In this document: piece after piece, positions 43,215-53,954 of the stretch
How positions within the stretch are numbered: position 1 is the first letter of the stretch
How the letters are laid out: each line of letters starts with the position of its first letter
From: a virus
DNA length: 64,000 bases
IMG/VR virus record: IMGVR_UViG_3300021356_000797
Location: 1-64,000 of that record
Strand: one strand, 5' to 3'
Position numbers and translations under genes: made by a program
The notes under the pieces: generated by a model
Database searches by the model: none
The model's input: the letters and a program-made list of their open reading frames with translations, nothing else
What the model was told of the DNA's origin: nothing

Positions 43215-46200
43215 ATGGCAAAGAAGAAGACTACTTCACAAGCAGCTAATGCTGCTATGCAGATACATACAGACTCTTTTGTAAAAGGGATGGTACAAGA
43301 TGTCAATGAATCTTTTCAGACAGCTGGTACGTGGCCGCATGCAAGAAACGCAGTAAATAATTCTACAGAAGGAGATGTTGGTACATTAGAAAATGAAGCA
43401 TCTACTAAGCTCTGTGTTGAAGTCCCTTATGATGTAATTGGACAGATCCACCTATATGATGATAAGTGGGCAATCTTTACTACTGATGATATCAATAGTG
43501 AGATTGGTATGTTTGATGAAAGCCAGTGTTCTTATACTAAGATTGTCAATGATTCAGTACTAGCTTTTGATAGAAACCATTTAATTAAAGGTGCTGCTAA
43601 AGAAAACTATGATTGTACTTGGCAATTGTACTGGGATGATGGTAAGAACCCATCAAGAACTTTAAATATTGACGACATCCCTTACAAAGTTACTAAGACT
43701 GTAGTGGATGATTGTGTAGTAGAAACTCCTACTGATAAGTTAGATGAAGACCAGATCCGTTTAGCAAGACTAATGGACACTCCTTGTATTACTATAGAGC
43801 AGGGAGAAGTGGGTACACTACTTAATGGTACTTACCAAGTATATATTGCTTACTCTGTAAATGGTACAAGAGTTAGTGATTACATGGCAGCTTCTAATTT
43901 ACAATCTATATTCTTTCATGAGAATAGTGTAGGATCTATTGAAGTTAATATTGAGGGTTTAGATACAGAACGTTTTGATGAGTTTGAGCTTGCTGTTGTA
44001 ACCTATATTAATCAGCAGACAAGTGCTTCTACATTTGGTTATTATTCTACACAAACAAAGCGTATAACTATTGACAGTATAGATCAGCGTTTAGTAGCTA
44101 TTCCATTAAGCATGCTTCTTTTACGTAAGCCTGCTTATGAAAAGTCTGATGCTATGTACACTGTTACCAACTACTTGTTGAGAGTTGGTGTATCAGATAA
44201 GTTTGATTTTAACTACCAACCTTTAGCTAATAAGATTAAAGCTAACTGGGTTGCTGTAGAGTATGATGCAGACTATTACAGAGATGGTGGTAGCAATACT
44301 GGCTATATGCGTGATGAGCAGTATGCATTCTTTATTAGATGGATTTACAATACTGGAGAGAAGTCTAGCTCATATCACATTCCTGGTAGACAAGCTTTCT
44401 CAGGAGATAGACAGCTTTTAGCTCCAGATGGTACAGAGATTTGGGGAGATACCCTACAAGAGAAGTGGAGTGTATATAACACAGCTACAGTAACTAGCAT
44501 TCAAACTGAAAACTTACCAGACGGTGGTAAAGTAGTTAAAAGAGGTAAGATGGGTTACTGGGAGTCTAGTGAAAGATATCCTGATAATAAGCCCGTGATA
44601 TGGGAAGATCTTTGTGGTAAACCTATACGTCACCATAAGATGCCAGATGATTGTATTATTCCTAGACATAATGAGGGTGGTACAAAAATTAACGTATTAG
44701 GTGTAGAGTTTACTAATATCAAACCCCCAGTAGATAATGATGGTAATCTAATTCCTGGTATTGTAGGTTATGAGATTCTTAGAGGATCTAGAAAAGGTAA
44801 TAAGTCTATTATTGCTAAGGGTCTTCTTAACAATATGTTTGAGTACAGTATTCCAGGTAAAGATGGAATTACAGGAATGTATCCTAACTATCCATTTAAT
44901 GATCTTAGACCTGACCCATATCTGACAAAATACTTTCCTGAAGATGGTAGATTAAATCAAGTAAAACGTAATAAGAATAATGAATTTGCAATAGACACCT
45001 ATAGCAAACGTCATTTTACATTTCATTCTCCTGATACACAGTTTAAGCATCCGTTCTTATCAGGATCAGAACTACGTATATATGGAGATGCTGTAGGTTC
45101 TTCTGAGGGTCAGTTTATAGATCCTTACAAACATCCTGAGCACAAGATGTTAGGAGATAGTGTAATGCTTATTGCAGTTCTATTAGGTTTAGGAAATGTT
45201 ATTAGAGGTATGTCTGGAGAGACTACACGAAAAGTTACTTTTCCTAAAGTTGCAGGAGGAAACATTACAGGTGCTGCTGGAGCTGCTGCAGGGATAGCGG
45301 CAGCTATAACTGAAGGAGGTTTACAAGCAACTGGTGTAAACTTTTTAACTAAAATAACAAGTAGTGATGCAGCTTCTAAATTATTAAAATATGGAGCTAG
45401 TGTTGCTTTTGGAGGCGAATATGAAGAAACAACTACAGGTTCTTCATATAGTGAGTTACCTCCATTTTTAAAATTATTTTCAATTGTACCAGCCTTCTTA
45501 ACATTTACTCAGATAGGTACAGATCAAGCATTAGATCTTATTTATAATATGCTTGGTTATAAACAATATGCTTTGCAACACATTGCACACGGTAAGTATG
45601 ATAAGTTTGTATGTACTACATCTGGTAATAAAAGAAGAAAACTTGATAAAGGTATTTACCTAAAGAATCAAAACTATTCATTTGATACAGATAGAAGTAT
45701 TAATAACTTTATGCGTAGCAGAACTGTTGCGCTAGAGGTAGCTAAAAATATTGCAGATCCTATTACTCCAGATACTAGTAAGTATACATTGGGTAGTAGA
45801 CAGTTTTGGGATTTAGATCTTAAGGATGTAAAGGATGAGGTTTTTAATTCAACTATTTCGTCTAAGTATGTTGGAATTAAGATTCAGAATGAAAATCAAT
45901 ACGGTCAGTTAGATAGTATTGCTCAATCTTTAACATCATGTGCCCAGATTTTACCAAGTGTATATGGTGTAAATAGTGAGTTTAAAACTCCTGTTCTATT
46001 TGGAGGAGATATTTACATTACTAGATACACTGAGAAGAATACAATGTTCTTTTTTAATGATTGGTTGGCAGGTAAAGAATTTCAAGATGGTGAGGAATAT
46101 GATTACCGTCAACACATTAATGTACCGTATCCTAGATACTATGCTAACACTCAGAGATATAGATTTGATAATTTTGTAGAAGGGTTAAGCCAAAGTTTAT

Positions 46201-48002
46201 TTAGTCTTACAGGTATTAAAAATTTACTTACAGGATTTCAAAAAGAAGATGACGTACAAGATCAAATTGACACGTTACCTTCTGACTTTCATAACTTAGA
46301 TAGAAAGACCTCCCCTAATGGTTTATTTAGAGCTAAGGGTTGGTTCTATCTTTTTAACTCAGGTGTTAAAGATTTCTTTGTAGAATCAGAAATTAACTGT
46401 GGCTACAGAGATCATGATGATAAGCCTACTACGCGTCACTATGACGACAGAGAATACACAGACTTACAACGTATCTTCCGTGCAGATGAGATCACTGCGG
46501 GTAACCACTTTAAGTATGACTTCTCTCTATCAGCTGGATATTACTTTACTACAAATGTTACTATGGGTAATATTCAGACTAGAGATTATGATCCTGAAAT
46601 ATCAGAGACATGTCATACATACTACCCTAACAGATTGATATACTCTCTGCCACAAGAGCAAACTCTTAAAGTTGATAACTGGAGGACCTTCCTGGTAAAC
46701 AATTATCAAGATTTTAAGAGCCCCCTTACAGCAGTTAAACCTATTGGTGACGCTGGTGCATTAATCATGCTGCGTAGAGAATCTCCTATGTTCTTTGCTG
46801 GTAATGATACCATTCAATCTACAGATGGATTAGAGATTACTATTGGAGACGGAGGACTATTTGATTCACGTCAAAAGATTAGAAACGTAGTTAACACTGA
46901 TGCATCTTATGAGTATGGTAGCTGTCAAAACAGATTAGCTATTAGTGCTACTCCTGCTGGTATCTTCTATGTATCACAGAACCAAGGTAAAATCTTTGCG
47001 TATTCTAATACGCTTAAAGACTTAACTGGTGCTGGAATGAAGTGGTGGTTTGCTAAGTATCTACCATATCAGATTAAAGAAGACTTCCCTGAGTTTGATC
47101 TTGTAGATAACTCTGTAAATGGTGTAGCGGTTTCTACTATCTATGATAACAGAAATGCAATCTTATATATTACTAAAAAGGATTACAAGCTACGTTCTGA
47201 GTATAAGGGTAAAGTAGAATGGATTGAGAATAATATCTTCTCTGTAGGCAATGCAAGAGTAGAGCTTGGGGATAGTAGATTCTTTGAAGATGCTAGCTGG
47301 ACTATTAGCTATGACGTTAAGTCTGGTGCATGGATCTCATTCCATGACTGGCATCCTGATGTATTGCTACCAGGTAAGAATCTATTCATGAGTGTTAAGG
47401 ATAAGAAGATCTGGAAGCACAATAATAGATGTGATAGCTTCTGTAACTTCTACGGTAAAGACTATCCATTTGAAGTAGAACAGATTATCAACACTGGTCA
47501 AATGGTTTCTACTATTAGAAGCTTTGAGTACCAGTTAGAATGTTACCAATACAAGGAGAACTGTAAAGATGAGTTCCATATCCTAGATGCAAACTTTGAC
47601 AGAGCTGTAGTATATAACTCTGAGCAAGTATCAGGTATGCTTAATCTAAATATTTCTCCTAAGAATGACCCTCAAGGAATTTTAGGCTATCCTAAAATAA
47701 ATGTTGCAAGTATTGATATCTTGTATAGCAAAGAAGAAAATAAATACAGATTCAACCAGTTCTGGGATATTACTAAAGATAGAGGTGAGTTTAGTAATGT
47801 GACTCGTAATGTATGGGATACACAACCTAACGGTTACATTAGAACTCTTAACAACTTCAATCTAGACTACACTAAAGATGCACATGAGCATAAAAAGTTC
47901 CGTCACTATAATAACAGATTGTTCTTGAAAAAGAATGTATCAGGAAGAACTAAGATGAGACTGAGGTTAACCAACGCTAAGCTAAATATTTCCCATAGAT
48001 AA
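43215..48002 (+). CDS. tail muzzle / tail stabilization protein (P22 gp10-like beta-propellers)
   Basis: 1595 aa; GYMRDEQYAF, FGGDIYI, WTISYD..WISFHDW motifs of the crAss-like tail stabilization protein. Confidence 0.8.
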   Translation: MAKKKTTSQAANAAMQIHTDSFVKGMVQDVNESFQTAGTWPHARNAVNNSTEGDVGTLENEASTKLCVEVPYDVIGQIHLYDDKWAIFTTDDINSEIGMFDESQCSYTKIVNDSVLAFDRNHLIKGAAKENYDCTWQLYWDDGKNPSRTLNIDDIPYKVTKTVVDDCVVETPTDKLDEDQIRLARLMDTPCITIEQGEVGTLLNGTYQVYIAYSVNGTRVSDYMAASNLQSIFFHENSVGSIEVNIEGLDTERFDEFELAVVTYINQQTSASTFGYYSTQTKRITIDSIDQRLVAIPLSMLLLRKPAYEKSDAMYTVTNYLLRVGVSDKFDFNYQPLANKIKANWVAVEYDADYYRDGGSNTGYMRDEQYAFFIRWIYNTGEKSSSYHIPGRQAFSGDRQLLAPDGTEIWGDTLQEKWSVYNTATVTSIQTENLPDGGKVVKRGKMGYWESSERYPDNKPVIWEDLCGKPIRHHKMPDDCIIPRHNEGGTKINVLGVEFTNIKPPVDNDGNLIPGIVGYEILRGSRKGNKSIIAKGLLNNMFEYSIPGKDGITGMYPNYPFNDLRPDPYLTKYFPEDGRLNQVKRNKNNEFAIDTYSKRHFTFHSPDTQFKHPFLSGSELRIYGDAVGSSEGQFIDPYKHPEHKMLGDSVMLIAVLLGLGNVIRGMSGETTRKVTFPKVAGGNITGAAGAAAGIAAAITEGGLQATGVNFLTKITSSDAASKLLKYGASVAFGGEYEETTTGSSYSELPPFLKLFSIVPAFLTFTQIGTDQALDLIYNMLGYKQYALQHIAHGKYDKFVCTTSGNKRRKLDKGIYLKNQNYSFDTDRSINNFMRSRTVALEVAKNIADPITPDTSKYTLGSRQFWDLDLKDVKDEVFNSTISSKYVGIKIQNENQYGQLDSIAQSLTSCAQILPSVYGVNSEFKTPVLFGGDIYITRYTEKNTMFFFNDWLAGKEFQDGEEYDYRQHINVPYPRYYANTQRYRFDNFVEGLSQSLFSLTGIKNLLTGFQKEDDVQDQIDTLPSDFHNLDRKTSPNGLFRAKGWFYLFNSGVKDFFVESEINCGYRDHDDKPTTRHYDDREYTDLQRIFRADEITAGNHFKYDFSLSAGYYFTTNVTMGNIQTRDYDPEISETCHTYYPNRLIYSLPQEQTLKVDNWRTFLVNNYQDFKSPLTAVKPIGDAGALIMLRRESPMFFAGNDTIQSTDGLEITIGDGGLFDSRQKIRNVVNTDASYEYGSCQNRLAISATPAGIFYVSQNQGKIFAYSNTLKDLTGAGMKWWFAKYLPYQIKEDFPEFDLVDNSVNGVAVSTIYDNRNAILYITKKDYKLRSEYKGKVEWIENNIFSVGNARVELGDSRFFEDASWTISYDVKSGAWISFHDWHPDVLLPGKNLFMSVKDKKIWKHNNRCDSFCNFYGKDYPFEVEQIINTGQMVSTIRSFEYQLECYQYKENCKDEFHILDANFDRAVVYNSEQVSGMLNLNISPKNDPQGILGYPKINVASIDILYSKEENKYRFNQFWDITKDRGEFSNVTRNVWDTQPNGYIRTLNNFNLDYTKDAHEHKKFRHYNNRLFLKKNVSGRTKMRLRLTNAKLNISHR

Positions 48003-51000
48003 TGAAAGGCCGGATTACTAAAACAGGGTATAGAAGAAATTCACCAGACGTGAATAATGACTTTAATATTATTCCTAGTAATAGGATTAGTATGAAAGGC
48101 GTAGACTTTCCTGTGTTGGGTATTGATAACTTGGGCAATACTCAATTAATGCATCCCGGAGGAGAGTATGAATATCAAGGAGATTATGTCACAGAGCTCC
48201 CTATGTATGGTTCTGGTGGCCTCACTCAGTGGTTTGCAGAGGAATGGGTGGACATTAAGACTGGTAAAAAATGTGGTAGATCTGGAAAAGACAAAAAGGG
48301 AAGACCTTACCCAGCGTGTAGACCAAGCAAAAGAGTAAACAAGACAACACCTAAGACAGCTTCTGAGTTATCTGCAGCTGAGAAAGCTAAGTTTAAAAGA
48401 AAGAAGAAGTCAGGTAAACGTATTGATTATAATCATAAGCGTGCTCAAGAAGGTACTGAAGTCCCATTAAATCGTAGTGAAGTATTTAACATTCCTAGAA
48501 CTCTTAGATATGAAAATGGTAATATGGTTCTTCAAGATAAACCTGTCTGGGACGGAATGCTTGACGAAGTTACTATTACTCCTTATACTCAATCTGAAAT
48601 TGCATTTCAGGAACTAATGAATAATAAAGCAACTGGAGGTTTAGAGCCTGTATATCCTGTATTTGAGGTGCTTAGTGCAGGTATAAAAACTCCTTTTACA
48701 GCAAGTGCTAAAGCTTTACAAACTGGCGTTAGAAAAGCTCCTTCTGTAATTAACCCTAGATATTTTAAACCTAACTCTAACATGTACTATAGAGGTATAG
48801 GTAAAAAAGGTATGGAAGATGCTTTACAGTCGGGGTTGTTTAGAGCTAAACCTGCTGATCAAATTCCTGCACGCATGGTAGATTTAGGATCTGTGGGTAA
48901 AGTAGACATGGCTAAACGTTTTAATAAGACTTACTATAGTCCTCGTTTTAATATTGCAGATCAATATGGTGCAGGATATATAGCAGAGGTACCTAAAGAT
49001 GCAGCTAAGTTTAGCAAACGTTATAAAAACACTGACTGGAGCATGTCTACTAGAGAACAGATTCCAGTTAGTAAAGGCCGTATACTAGAAAAAAATTGGT
49101 GGTCTGGTTATAAACCAGTTAAAAAATACGGAGGTTCACTACCTAAAGCTCAGGAAGGTAATAGTGAAGCACCATTAAACCGTGGTGAAATATTTAATAT
49201 TCCTAGGACAATGGGATATGAAGATGGTAAAATGGTTGTTCAAGACAAACCTATCTGGGATGGTATGCTTGACGAGGTTACTATTACACCTTATACGCAA
49301 GGTAATATTTTATCTGAGTATATGATGAATAACAAAGCTACAGGAGGATTAGAACCAGTATACCCTGTTTTTGATTTAATGACTTTAGGTTTAAAAGCTC
49401 CTGCAACAGCTGGGGTTAAAGCTATACAAGCGGGTATTAAAAAAGCACCTTCTAAATTAAACCCTAAGTATTATAATCCTAATATGTATGCAAAAGGGAA
49501 TCCAAACGTTATGTATAGACAGGTTGGAAAAGATGCTTATCAGGATTTTGCAAATAGTGGATTTGTGAGAACTAAAGCTGAAATTACAGATAATCCTATA
49601 TTAGGGTTACTTGAGACACAAAAAGAAATAAAAGATGTTCTACGTTATAATAAAGAGTATAGACCATCTCAATATAGACACGCTACAGACTTTAGAGCTC
49701 CTTTTTTTAGCAGAGGTAAAACAACTACAATAAAAGATGGGGGTGCTGATTACTTGATTCAAACTCGTCCTGATAAAGTTGGACCTAATAATTTTTATAG
49801 TGCACAGTGGAATATTCTTCATGGAGATCAGCCGCCCGTTGTAGGTGGGTTTGGAATAATGGATCCTATGTACAGAGCTGCGGATAACTTTGATGTATTT
49901 AAGAAAAGTTGGTGGCATGGTTATAAACCGGTTAAACAATTAGGAGGATCTTTAACCAAATATCAAGTACAAGGAGAAGTATTTCCTACAATGCTTGATG
50001 AAGTAACTGTTATTGATAAAGGAGCGCCTTCTGCATTTGGTAAAGGAAGTTCAGATAGAATGGGTACTACCTATACTATTCCAATGAATATAAAAAATGC
50101 TAGAGGGTATAGTCAAAATGGAATGCGTGTTTTATTTGACAGCCCTGGTAAATTAGCAAAAGATGCTCAAAAGGAATTTAGATCTCAATTTGGTTTTAAT
50201 GCTAATAAGTTAAAGAAGAATTTTAAAAACATATTTAGTCAAGACTTTATAACTCTTGGAGATGATCAGACTTTTCAAAATGCAGCTTATGCTGGCCCCA
50301 TGAGTTTAAGTAATTCTTATTTTATTAATGAGTCAGATAATATTATTGAGCCAAGAACTATTAGCAGGAGTAATACAAAAGTTACTACTAACCTTATTAA
50401 TAATGATAGATCTGCTTTACTTGCAGATATGGCAAGACCTGGTACTAAAGCAGACTTTTTTAATTTATTTCAACAACGTGAAGGTTTTAGACCTTATTTA
50501 GAGGCTAAGGTTAGTAATGGTAAAGTGTATGATGCTAAACTTGGTGAGGAAGATGTTACATCCAGAAGTCCTTTTGAATCTAATATGATTAACTATCTAG
50601 GTAGTGATGCATATTTTGAAAGACTTGCTGGCACTCAATATAATAATGAGATAGATGTTAATAAATGGTCTACAGATAAAGACTATAGAAAATCTTATGC
50701 AGAACGTTTAAAAGCAGATAAACCAGAATTCCTTAAAAATTATTATGAAGGTCTTTCAAAAACTCTTGCAAATCCTATAGTTGCTGAAATAGATCACAAT
50801 CTTGGATCATATGCTAGTGCAGGAACACATAACCATGGAACTTTAACAGGACAAAATGTTATAGATTACAACCCTTATAACTTTAATAATGCCTTTGGAG
50901 GAGCAGAGAAAAGAAAAGAAGCCTTGATAAAAGAGTTAGAACGTAGAGGGGCTACTCCTGCGGAAATTGATGTAACAATGGAATATGGTATAGGGCCAGG

Positions 51001-52537
51001 AATGAATGATAATTTTTCCGATGTAATGTCTCATGAGCTTGCCCATGTTTATAGTCTGGGATCTAAAGATTATATTTTAAATAATGAGTCTGCAAACGTA
51101 GCTCCTGGTATAGATAAAGAATATGAGCTTTTATGGAATATAAACAAAGACACAAAAGATCAACCTTTTTATTCATATCAAAACCATTTAAATACTGGGT
51201 CAAAACCTATTAGTTATAATACTGCTTTAAACAGTGAAATACAAAATGTTGCTGACCGTTTAAATACTAGGTACCATAACATTTCTCCTGAAGAAACTAA
51301 AGCTGATGTATATGGTATCAGAAACTATCTTCTTAGAACTCAAGGTCAAGATTATGATCAACCCTTTACTAAAGAAAATTATGATTCTTTAATGAATGAT
51401 GACAAATTTAAAGAAGGTTTGTTTTATAAGCGCATGCAAGAAAGATATGGTGATGATCAATCTAAATGGATGAAAGCTATGAATCTTATTGCTTCAAAAG
51501 AAGATGGTAAAAATTATAGAATGTATGCAGAACGTGGTGGGCAGTTGCCTAAAGCTCAAAAGGGTAATGGTGAAAAACACACTGTAGCATCAGGTGAAAC
51601 ATTCTATGGTATTGCTAATAAAAATGGTATTGCTTGGGAAGATCTTGTTAGTGCTAACCCAGGTGTTGATATAGAAAAACTTTCAGTTGGTCAGATCATT
51701 AATATCCCATCTGTTTCAAAATCAGGGGGTGTAAAAATTACATACTCAGATCCTGAACTTAACATTCTTCAGCAAGAAAGAGAGCTTGGAAATATAAAAC
51801 AATCAGAGCCAGAACAAGTAGAACAGGTTAAAATTACAAAGCAACCTGTTGAAACTAAAACTACTCAGGTATATGATGGTCCTGGTTATTTTCCAGAAGC
51901 GTTGCTACTTAAGCAAGCATATAAAGAATCTACATTTAATCCGGCTGCTCAATCTAAGATTAAAGATCCGGCTCAAGGATTTGCCCAGTTTAGACCTATT
52001 ACTGTAAGAGAATTGCAGAGACTAGGTTTTGCTGATGATACATTTGATCCTTTTGATTACACTCAGTCTATTGGTGCTCAAAGAGATTATATGAACTATT
52101 TGTATACTAGACCATGGATAGATAAGCCTAATCAATCTGAAGAGGTGAGATTAGCAAAAACATTAGCAGCATATAATTGGGGACCAGAAGTATTTAAGAC
52201 ATTCTTGACTAATAAGAAAGCAGCTGGAGTAGATATATATAACTCCTTAGATTGGGTAGATCAATTACCTGGAGAAACTGGTGATTATATTAATAAGATT
52301 TTATTAGATAGTGATGAGCAATTCCAGGCAGATTATCAAAAAGCTCTTAAAGACAGTGCTAACTTAAAGTACATTAACCTTTATAATCTAAAAGCAGGAG
52401 GAGAATCTCTACCAGTATATAATACATATAAGACTAAGAATAGAGCTTGGTTAGCAGCGCGTAAAAATTTAGGCGCTAATAAGAAGTTTATGTACGGTGG
52501 TAAAGTTTACTCTACAAGCACACCTAAAGGGCTGTAA
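48002..52537 (+). CDS. multidomain internal virion (cargo) protein: basic module, two ART-like cassettes, zincin, LysM, lytic transglycosylase (SLT)
   Basis: HTVASGETFYGIA...LSVGQIINIP (LysM); KESTFNP..GFAQF..AAYNWG..ET.DYI (SLT); SHELAH; internal duplication. Confidence 0.75.
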   Translation: MKGRITKTGYRRNSPDVNNDFNIIPSNRISMKGVDFPVLGIDNLGNTQLMHPGGEYEYQGDYVTELPMYGSGGLTQWFAEEWVDIKTGKKCGRSGKDKKGRPYPACRPSKRVNKTTPKTASELSAAEKAKFKRKKKSGKRIDYNHKRAQEGTEVPLNRSEVFNIPRTLRYENGNMVLQDKPVWDGMLDEVTITPYTQSEIAFQELMNNKATGGLEPVYPVFEVLSAGIKTPFTASAKALQTGVRKAPSVINPRYFKPNSNMYYRGIGKKGMEDALQSGLFRAKPADQIPARMVDLGSVGKVDMAKRFNKTYYSPRFNIADQYGAGYIAEVPKDAAKFSKRYKNTDWSMSTREQIPVSKGRILEKNWWSGYKPVKKYGGSLPKAQEGNSEAPLNRGEIFNIPRTMGYEDGKMVVQDKPIWDGMLDEVTITPYTQGNILSEYMMNNKATGGLEPVYPVFDLMTLGLKAPATAGVKAIQAGIKKAPSKLNPKYYNPNMYAKGNPNVMYRQVGKDAYQDFANSGFVRTKAEITDNPILGLLETQKEIKDVLRYNKEYRPSQYRHATDFRAPFFSRGKTTTIKDGGADYLIQTRPDKVGPNNFYSAQWNILHGDQPPVVGGFGIMDPMYRAADNFDVFKKSWWHGYKPVKQLGGSLTKYQVQGEVFPTMLDEVTVIDKGAPSAFGKGSSDRMGTTYTIPMNIKNARGYSQNGMRVLFDSPGKLAKDAQKEFRSQFGFNANKLKKNFKNIFSQDFITLGDDQTFQNAAYAGPMSLSNSYFINESDNIIEPRTISRSNTKVTTNLINNDRSALLADMARPGTKADFFNLFQQREGFRPYLEAKVSNGKVYDAKLGEEDVTSRSPFESNMINYLGSDAYFERLAGTQYNNEIDVNKWSTDKDYRKSYAERLKADKPEFLKNYYEGLSKTLANPIVAEIDHNLGSYASAGTHNHGTLTGQNVIDYNPYNFNNAFGGAEKRKEALIKELERRGATPAEIDVTMEYGIGPGMNDNFSDVMSHELAHVYSLGSKDYILNNESANVAPGIDKEYELLWNINKDTKDQPFYSYQNHLNTGSKPISYNTALNSEIQNVADRLNTRYHNISPEETKADVYGIRNYLLRTQGQDYDQPFTKENYDSLMNDDKFKEGLFYKRMQERYGDDQSKWMKAMNLIASKEDGKNYRMYAERGGQLPKAQKGNGEKHTVASGETFYGIANKNGIAWEDLVSANPGVDIEKLSVGQIINIPSVSKSGGVKITYSDPELNILQQERELGNIKQSEPEQVEQVKITKQPVETKTTQVYDGPGYFPEALLLKQAYKESTFNPAAQSKIKDPAQGFAQFRPITVRELQRLGFADDTFDPFDYTQSIGAQRDYMNYLYTRPWIDKPNQSEEVRLAKTLAAYNWGPEVFKTFLTNKKAAGVDIYNSLDWVDQLPGETGDYINKILLDSDEQFQADYQKALKDSANLKYINLYNLKAGGESLPVYNTYKTKNRAWLAARKNLGANKKFMYGGKVYSTSTPKGL
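48443..49475 (+). repeat. duplicated ~110-codon header (about 48443-48770 and 49148-49475) inside the cargo protein
   Basis: AQEG..PLNR.E.FNIPRT..YE.G.MV.QDKP.WDGMLDEVTITPYTQ...MNNKATGGLEPVYPVF occurs twice. Confidence 0.9.
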
Positions 52538-52558
52538 ATATGGTAGTCTGCTATAATT

Positions 52559-52570
52559 TTTGTATATTAT
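52559..52570 (+). promoter_or_regulatory. putative late promoter TTTGTATATTAT
   Basis: Recurrent motif 23 nt upstream of ATG 52593. Confidence 0.62.
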
Positions 52571-52592
52571 AAATGAGATATCGTAACTAGTT

Positions 52593-53954
52593 ATGTCAAA
52601 AAATATTCCCACAAATAAGAAGCTTTATGCTAGAGTAAAAGCAGAAGCTAAAAAGAAATTTGATAGATGGCCTTCTGCCTATGGATCTGCCTGGCTTGTA
52701 AAAGAATACAAGAAACGTGGCGGAGGTTATAGAAAGGCAGAAGAAGGAATGGAAGTTCCTGATTATGGTTACGGTGGCGGCATGAACTATGCAGACTATG
52801 CTTACATGTATGGTGGTGAAGATGCAGACATGATGGAATATGCAAAGGGTGGTGGGATACCTGAGCGTTACAAGAACATGGGATTCACTAAAGTAGGTGT
52901 AAAGAAAAAGTCTACACGTCCTGGTAAAAAGTGGATGGTACTTGCTAAGAAAGGAGACAAGTACAAAGTGGTACACGGTGGTTTTAAAGGAATGAAAGAC
53001 TACACCCAACACGGTAGCTCTAAAAGACGTAAACGTTTTTGGGATAGAATGGGTGGTAAAGACTCTGCTAAAGCTAAAGATCCATTTAGCCCACTATACT
53101 GGCACAAGAGATTTGGTACCTGGGAAGAAGGTGGTGAAATCTTTAATGAGGATTCTATGGATTTCTACGCACAAGGTGGTGGTACAGATAACCCAGGATT
53201 TAAAGCATTACCTCCAGAAGTACAGCAAAACATTCTAGACAATATGGGTATTGGTGGTGAGTGCTATGCTTGTGGTGGTCAAAAGAAATATCAGCTTGGT
53301 GGTAAGCCTGGAAATCCATTTACTCAAGAAGAGTTGGATTATATGGAGAGCATGTATCAACAACCTGATCTAGAATATTTACCTTATCCAGATGATACTG
53401 GTAACTTGGATGTAATGTACCCAAACCCAGCCATGGGGTTAGATGTAATGCCCCCAGACTCAACTATAGAGTTAGATGAAGTGGTAGTAACAGATACTAG
53501 ACTTGGTGGTTTAAAGCCTAAGCCAATTCCAGATATGACTCCGGAAATGTTTGAGCCTGCTTTAATGCCGGTAACACTACCAGAAAGAGTGGAGTCTTAT
53601 ATAGAAGATCCAGAGAAAGAGGAAGAGCAAAAGAATAAGCCTAATAGAAGATTACAGTGGGCTATGGGTAGAATTGCTATGGCTAATGCTGCAAATCAGT
53701 TTATGGAAAACATGAATGACCGTAAACAAGAAGCTAAAATGAGACAGAATCTTCTTACTGATAACTTTGTACCAATGATTACAGGTAATGACAGAGGAGA
53801 CTATGATATAAATACAGGTATCTTTAGACCTGATGATTATGTACCTACACAGTTTCAATCTTTTATGGCAAAGGGTGGACAGATTGGTATGGTAGATGAA
53901 GACATATTACAAGAACTTATTGCAGCAGGTGCTGACATTGAAATCTTAGACTGA
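52593..53954 (+). CDS. cargo protein made of short basic modules separated by xxxGG motifs
   Basis: Nine [YMW]xxGG motifs; PSAYGSAWLVKEYKKRGG and STRPGKKWMV..DYTQH modules. Confidence 0.72.
   Translation: MSKNIPTNKKLYARVKAEAKKKFDRWPSAYGSAWLVKEYKKRGGGYRKAEEGMEVPDYGYGGGMNYADYAYMYGGEDADMMEYAKGGGIPERYKNMGFTKVGVKKKSTRPGKKWMVLAKKGDKYKVVHGGFKGMKDYTQHGSSKRRKRFWDRMGGKDSAKAKDPFSPLYWHKRFGTWEEGGEIFNEDSMDFYAQGGGTDNPGFKALPPEVQQNILDNMGIGGECYACGGQKKYQLGGKPGNPFTQEELDYMESMYQQPDLEYLPYPDDTGNLDVMYPNPAMGLDVMPPDSTIELDEVVVTDTRLGGLKPKPIPDMTPEMFEPALMPVTLPERVESYIEDPEKEEEQKNKPNRRLQWAMGRIAMANAANQFMENMNDRKQEAKMRQNLLTDNFVPMITGNDRGDYDINTGIFRPDDYVPTQFQSFMAKGGQIGMVDEDILQELIAAGADIEILD

Follow-up and report, generated by a model that had tools for sequence, protein, structure and literature searches.

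TonB-box-like motifs in the putative cargo proteins of a crass-like phage

The stretch of DNA considered in this article (the window) is the first 64 kb, positions 1 to 64,000, of the IMG/VR virus record IMGVR_UViG_3300021356_000797, which is 103.8 kb long and approximately 87% complete. It carries two adjacent genes, P0001 and P0002, whose products contain between them four copies of a short motif resembling the TonB box of Bacteroidota TonB-dependent transporters. By sequence the source phage is crass-like, and an open reading frame (ORF) at 10388-12007 matches Crass_capsid, the major capsid protein. The genes of the locus are:

43215..48002, plus strand: crassvirus muzzle (tail gatekeeper) gene, matching Pfam crAss_MUZ with an E-value of 8.6e-29
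48002..52537, plus strand: P0001, a modular putative cargo polyprotein of 1511 amino acids, assigned by its position after the muzzle gene and by domain matches
52593..53954, plus strand: P0002, a putative cargo protein of 453 amino acids, assigned by its position after P0001 and by domain matches

The muzzle gene sets the context in which the genes that follow it occupy the cargo-protein position of crassviruses; P0001 begins directly where the muzzle gene ends, and P0002 comes next. The gene order of phage crAss001, which was checked, runs from the muzzle gp44 to the cargo proteins gp45 and gp46 (PMC10172136). The latter two reside in the tail and capsid, and it is believed that they exit first, partly unfolded, and bridge the host envelope (PMC10172136). 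We infer that P0001 and P0002 are ejected, and they are probably proteins injected into the host. Neither shows detectable similarity to gp45, gp46 or the proteins of any phage isolate at an E-value of 1e-3 or better. A tblastn search of the P0001 modules and P0002 against 50,697 phage records gave no relevant match, and a search for near-identical DNA among phage isolates returned nothing useful.

P0001 is built, in order, from an N-terminal conserved domain with half of DUF5872, two cassettes resembling ADP-ribosyltransferases (ART), a module with an HExxH motif, and a module with LysM and SLT domains, the modules being connected by GG/KAQxG linkers (RAQEG at residue 147, KAQEG at 382, KYQVQG at 653, and KAQKG at 1184). 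In P0002 the first half of DUF5872 is accompanied by DUF5754, an extended disordered stretch, and a C-terminal tail that is conserved. The motif sites are placed within this arrangement as follows, with scores from the matrix described below:

48560..48583, plus strand: TonB-box-like site 1, LDEVTITP, P0001 residues 187-194, 35 residues past RAQEG, 17.2 bits
49268..49291, plus strand: TonB-box-like site 2, LDEVTITP, P0001 residues 423-430, 36 residues past KAQEG, 17.2 bits
49994..50017, plus strand: TonB-box-like site 3, LDEVTVID, P0001 residues 665-672, 6 residues past KYQVQG and before the HExxH module, 16.5 bits
53472..53501, plus strand: TonB-box-like site 4, LDEVVVTDTR, P0002 residues 294-303, 23.0 bits

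The sites thus lie 35, 36, 6, and 56 residues from the preceding linker, and each is followed by a different stretch of cargo. A six-frame translation of the window contains four instances of LDEV[TV][IV], all within P0001 or P0002, and no further LDEV is present in any of the six frames across the 64 kb; the relaxed pattern [DE]E[VI][VT][VIT] adds only a single match across the 103.8-kb genome. An earlier note on this DNA, made from the sequence alone, had described the four instances, and all were found (MLDEVTITP at P0001 186-194 and 422-430, MLDEVTVID at 664-672, and ELDEVVVTD in P0002). Its coordinates hold for the first three; position 53472, given there for the fourth, belongs to the leucine (L294) and not to the glutamate, a slip of one codon. 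The same note had placed the third site about 15 residues past the sequence KQLGG, a distance that proves to be exactly 15 residues, and had remarked that the third cassette keeps only the motif out of the header shared by the first two, which agrees with the finding that module 3 shares essentially nothing but the motif with modules 1 and 2. Those two modules are paralogous, with 40% identity overall and a much better conserved header.

The likeness to a TonB box that the earlier note had drawn is borne out by the published SusC consensus, by a comparison of 10-residue sequences, and by an independent scoring matrix. The consensus, derived from 100 SusC-like proteins of B. thetaiotaomicron, is DEVVV(V/T/I); in one of them, BT1763, the box reads 82-DEVVVTG-88, and its deletion or replacement with alanine abolishes function. 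At least 120 bacterial genomes contain the transporter sequence LDEVVVTATR; many belong to the Bacteroidota, and other Gram-negative phyla are represented as well. Across 118 reading frames, its median distance from the first methionine is 37 residues; the ORFs have a median of 693 amino acids, and most end in phenylalanine. All six such ORFs that were tested carry Plug and TonB_dep_Rec barrel domains, with the 10-mer just before the Plug. The P0002 site, LDEVVVTDTR, is identical to this transporter sequence at nine of the ten positions, and an authentic transporter box from Tenacibaculum reads LDEVTIT, as do the sites of cassettes 1 and 2.

The matrix has 10 columns. The sequences preceding 30 Plug domains were taken from three Bacteroidota genomes, and the 28 boxes that could be aligned went into the matrix; it was trained on transporter TonB boxes only and includes no phage sites. 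When it was used to scan the phage proteome (32,493 residues in 80 ORFs), the four sites ranked first to fourth, at 23.0, 17.2, 17.2, and 16.5 bits, with the fifth-best site reaching 8.0 bits and the best score in shuffled proteomes not exceeding 14.7 bits. The median of the training boxes is 23.6 bits, and site 4 is about equal to it. As sequences, the four sites are thereby shown to be statistically indistinguishable from real transporter TonB boxes. The remainder of a transporter is lacking, in that no match to Plug, TonB_dep_Rec or TIGR04056 was found in P0001, P0002 or anywhere else in the genome.

Seen across relatives, the element has the character of a short linear motif, and the segment around it is predicted to be flexible. 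The core pattern occurs 24 times in 149 homologous polyproteins, against 1.5 times in shuffled sequences, with reversed and scrambled controls at background, and a chance origin of the motif is excluded. It is found in the shared header and in at least eight further, unrelated sequence contexts, where it precedes different domains. Across 47 aligned homologues of P0002 the commonest residue is present in 70% of rows over the seven core columns, against 24% in the flanks; the fifth motif position is free in homologues (T, V, E or D), which would fit one face of an edge strand. In the AlphaFold model of cassette 1 the motif lies in coil with pLDDT below 50 (residues 37-47 of module 1), flanked by a hairpin and a helix, and in that of P0002 it falls within residues 260-355, a region of pLDDT below 50 predicted to have no secondary structure. 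Both models were folded from shallow alignments, of 38 and 47 rows, and that of P0002 is of low overall quality, at a mean pLDDT of 48. The earlier note had named burial of the motif as a core strand of the header fold as an outcome that would refute its idea; what was found instead is coil of low pLDDT in both models, together with the unrelated contexts. Segments of 41 residues around the motif gave no match among PDB chains or in NCBIfam, such segments being too short for HMMER.

In P0002, a second conserved island, G-L-x-P-K-P-I-P, at 53508-53531 (residues 306-313), stands a few residues past the motif in most homologues. The C-terminus of the protein (53886-53951), L-I-A-A-G-A-D-I-E-[IL]-L-D, is nearly invariant in the 47 homologues, whereas the 170 residues before it are variable, and this tail could be a docking peptide.

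The domains that follow the sites bear on what the motif might deliver, and three regions of P0001 can be located precisely:

48752..49129, plus strand: cargo domain of cassette 1 resembling ADP-ribosyltransferases, spanning residues 105-230 in the model of the module, recognized by AlphaFold (pLDDT above 90) and Foldseek
51032..51046, plus strand: HELAH, a possible zinc-metallopeptidase motif in module 3, recognized from sequence
51578..52222, plus strand: LysM and SLT lytic transglycosylase module, recognized by Pfam

The top Foldseek matches of the cassette domain are the A subunits of heat-labile enterotoxin and cholera toxin, Tpt1/KptA, and ART toxins of Rhs proteins, with probabilities of up to 0.98 but E-values of only about 0.01, and the modelled domain may be called ART-like by fold. 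The earlier note had envisaged a colicin-like layout of box, helix, and toxin, of which the toxin part appears reasonable because the domain past the header is ART-like by fold. The two ART-like domains, at 48752-49129 and 49460-49900, have an invariant R, G-x-G, D-A, and R, and a near-invariant A-E-x-P. A full HMMER search with cassette 1 recovered 337 representative proteins, mostly large GG-linked polyproteins, and nearly all of these homologues of the ART-like domain are large polyproteins of phages. No relative of the domain was found among 185,579 bacterial genomes (one per species), so there is no prophage to point to a host.

The 500-residue module containing HELAH has no Pfam match, and on the strength of its motif it may be a processing metallopeptidase of the kind proposed for polyvalent proteins. 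The LysM and SLT domains of P0001 are recognized by Pfam at residues 1193-1236 (E 4.6e-10) and 1298-1407 (E 2.1e-8), respectively; a module of this composition acts on peptidoglycan and thus indicates the periplasm. A homologue of P0002, P0210, has an additional L,D-transpeptidase domain of the YkuD type (PF03734), which would be a further sign that the family acts in the periplasm.

The N-terminal regions of both proteins show two further peculiarities. Pfam DUF5872 is divided over the two genes, with profile positions 1-42 at the start of P0002 (52593-52733) and positions 53-114 at residues 71-139 of P0001 (48212-48418). Residues 1-70 of P0001 (48002-48210) carry the conserved sequence S-N-x-I-[ST]-M-K-G-V-x-[FY]-P-V-L-G ... 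V-T-E-[LY]-P and match phrog_36695, a family of virion structural proteins; many of the polyproteins contain this domain again, in an N-terminal, central or C-terminal position.

The reading favoured here, tentatively and with somewhat less than even confidence, is that the four sites are functional mimics of the TonB box by which host TonB would pull the cargo chain into the cell at the expense of the proton-motive force. We infer that the motif would bind TonB and that this binding would serve entry. In this scheme the cargo chain would emerge in the host periplasm, where the box would pair as an additional beta-strand with the C-terminal domain of TonB, and TonB-ExbBD, driven by the proton-motive force, would then draw the unfolded polyprotein from the tail across the outer membrane. 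One grip point would be provided before each cargo domain, namely the two ART-like domains, the HExxH module, and the C-terminal part of P0002, and a grip point ahead of each domain fits ejection from the N- to the C-terminus. The internal position of the boxes is no obstacle, because the TonB box of SusC is itself internal and lies behind an N-terminal domain. A TonB C-terminal domain encoded by the phage, as an alternative partner, was not found in the phage genome. The host would be a Gram-negative bacterium with a TonB box of this kind, probably a member of the Bacteroidota.

How widely the motif is shared bears directly on this reading. Sites of at least 15 bits are carried by 17 of the 149 polyprotein homologues (0.3 sites in shuffled sequences) and by 53 of the 120 homologues of P0002 (0.15 sites in shuffled sequences), and in 35 IMG/VR loci totalling 216,229 residues all sites of at least 14 bits fall in the cargo polyprotein. 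By these counts the motif is frequent in the clade and not obligatory. It is missing from crAss001 and three cultured relatives, all of which are at background, and the notion of a general feature of Crassvirales was rejected. The header sequence used singly as a query found no relatives in IMG/VR, and a scan of IMG/VR for the 10-mer returned only three loci, one a real transporter and two spanin-like lipoproteins, and so is of no use for counting cargo proteins.

The two lipoprotein loci (IMG/VR contigs L163, 2009-2557, and L164, 4981-5541) encode a protein of about 182 amino acids in which a lipoprotein signal is followed by a long acidic linker, LDEVTVTATR, and a C-terminal membrane helix. 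Its gene comes after those for an amidase endolysin and a small protein of no assigned function and before the tail sheath gene. The protein looks like a one-piece spanin with a TonB box of the transporter type, in an unrelated phage.

Several observations weigh against the proposed entry by TonB. Most of the 35 IMG/VR relatives identified by the ART-like domain have no motif or only degenerate forms of it, and 67 of the 120 P0002 homologues have no site at the 15-bit cut-off; with so many homologous modules lacking it, the motif must be dispensable or replaceable. The matrix found nothing above 12.8 bits in crAss001, and nothing above 8.8 bits in the cargo regions of Cellulophaga phage phi17:2, Flavobacterium phage Fpv1, and Leptolyngbya phage Lbo-JY46. 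Variants such as LPEVxVT and LDEVEVTA deviate from the SusC consensus, and no box is attached to the LysM/SLT module, although this too must reach the periplasm. By muzzle protein, the isolates nearest to the phage infect Cellulophaga and Flavobacterium, and the closest one a cyanobacterium. Finally, a beta-strand motif could equally dock another partner.

That first-ranking isolate is the Leptolyngbya cyanophage Lbo-JY46, whose muzzle protein is 28% identical across 88% of the protein's length and which precedes the Cellulophaga and Flavobacterium phages.

Docking of another kind is the substance of the main rival, which is considered unlikely but deserves serious weight: the motif would be a docking or loading strand within the virion, pairing with the capsid interior, portal, tail barrel or muzzle and so holding each module in place, comparable to encapsulin cargo-loading peptides or to the sequence that targets T4 internal proteins to the capsid. 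Its likeness to a TonB box would then reflect merely a shared need for an amphipathic edge strand. The presence of one motif per module in a flexible segment, the free fifth position, which suits any edge-strand pairing, and the restriction of the motif to one phage clade with GG-linked polyproteins are all in keeping with such a role, as is the anchoring of crAss001 gp45 to the portal, barrel, and muzzle through short segments that have been resolved (PMC10172136). However, the contacts resolved in crAss001 are made by helices and a folded domain and not by strands (PMC10172136), and homologues that lack the motif are presumably still packaged. A generic need for a strand also leaves unexplained both the match of nine residues in ten to LDEVVVTATR and scores at the median of real boxes in a proteome that elsewhere reaches 8 bits at most.

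The remaining explanations are less probable. The earlier note had offered, as the second of its two ideas, that the ejected boxes might jam TonB, competing with host transporters so as to stop uptake or to exclude TonB-dependent phages and bacteriocins. Such a blockade would draw on the same sequence evidence as entry by TonB, but it is improbable and is the weaker of the two ideas, because a few copies of each cargo protein with one to three boxes apiece would supply a few dozen boxes at most per virion, against the hundreds of TonB molecules in an Escherichia coli cell. Moreover, virion cargo acts before new gene expression, at a time when exclusion would be of little value.

Slightly less probable again is a proteolytic processing site, at which L-x-E would be cut by a prohead protease of the T4 type, or by the protein's own HExxH module, to free the modules. 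The sequence LDE does satisfy the (L/I)-x-E rule for cleavage by T4 gp21, the motif stands near the starts of modules, and polyvalent phage proteins have been proposed to be cut by their own metallopeptidase domains (PMC5512222). Yet the genome, 87% complete, contains no match to an S77 or S78 maturation protease (PF03420, PF04586) at an E-value of 1 or better, and no protease domain was found in ten ORFs of the head module. Conservation also extends beyond the glutamate (V, V, and T at +1, +3, and +4) into flanks that resemble TATR, the true boundaries of the modules are the GG/KAQxG linkers 6-56 residues upstream, and many proteins that bear the motif have no HExxH module. A cleavage site of the T4 type was downgraded because no such protease was found and conservation runs past the glutamate. 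Least credible of all is a fortuitous likeness, in which the motif would be a structural strand of small folds missed by AlphaFold, with no partner outside its own protein, since the shallow alignments and the poor P0002 model that would leave room for it are set against unrelated contexts, conservation restricted to about 8-10 residues, and an enrichment of at least 16-fold over shuffled sequences with scrambled controls at background.

The known systems with which the phage proteins invite comparison each share some of their features. The TonB-dependent transporters of the Bacteroidota, both those of the SusC/RagA type and generic ones with LDEVVVTATR before the Plug, have the same L-D-E-V-[VT]-[VI]-T, which in P0002 is also followed by TR, and in both the box lies in a flexible segment that may be internal to the chain. 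The phage carrier differs in being a putative virion protein that lacks a signal peptide, a Plug, and a barrel, in holding several boxes per chain, and in having a freer fifth position (T, E or D) and sometimes P in place of the D. Group B colicins and pyocins (e.g., colicins B, Ia, and M, and pyocin S2) carry their own TonB box in an unstructured segment before a cytotoxic or enzymatic domain, an arrangement that permits energised import across the outer membrane. The phage proteins have a TonB-box-like motif, predicted disorder, and an ART-like domain; their delivery would be by a tail and not from solution, and the motifs are repeated along a polyprotein. No receptor-binding or colicin translocation domain and no immunity gene was recognized, and no homology to colicins was found in Pfam. 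The cargo proteins C1 and C2 of crAss001 (gp45 and gp46) share the gene position directly after the muzzle, but they are not GG-linked polyproteins with ART, SLT or HExxH modules and have no TonB-box-like site above background.

Polyvalent proteins, known from phages and conjugative elements, similarly join several unrelated effector domains (ART-like, metallopeptidase-like, and lysozyme-type) in a single virion-associated polypeptide, delivered on invasion (Iyer et al., 2017; PMC5512222), and P0001 has at least the two unrelated effector domains by which they are defined, in the form of two ART-like domains, LysM, and SLT, with HELAH as the sign of a possible metallopeptidase. That scheme differs in having neither linkers nor a box, and a TonB or entry motif is not mentioned (PMC5512222). 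In the literature searched no report was found of a TonB box on a phage virion or ejection protein, and published work on Crassvirales has proposed TonB-dependent receptors, by docking, as targets of the tail spike only. What would be new here is therefore a putative TonB box on phage cargo, as TonB boxes on imported toxins are already known.

How podoviruses drive unfolded protein amounting to megadaltons through a narrow tail and past two membranes has been raised as a question for crassviruses in particular (PMC10172136). If entry by TonB is correct, pulling powered by the host would supply both a source of energy and an order of events. The broader proposal, that a clade of crAss-like phages uses TonB-ExbBD as a winch, with repeated boxes allowing TonB to pull the chain out module by module, is a doubtful but appreciable possibility; if true, it would be the first protein ejection driven by the proton-motive force to be described for a phage, as well as the first TonB box on a virion protein. 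Were TonB to act in this way, the parasitism of TonB that is practised by colicins would extend to phages, and the status of tonB and exbBD in the host would be predicted to govern its susceptibility.

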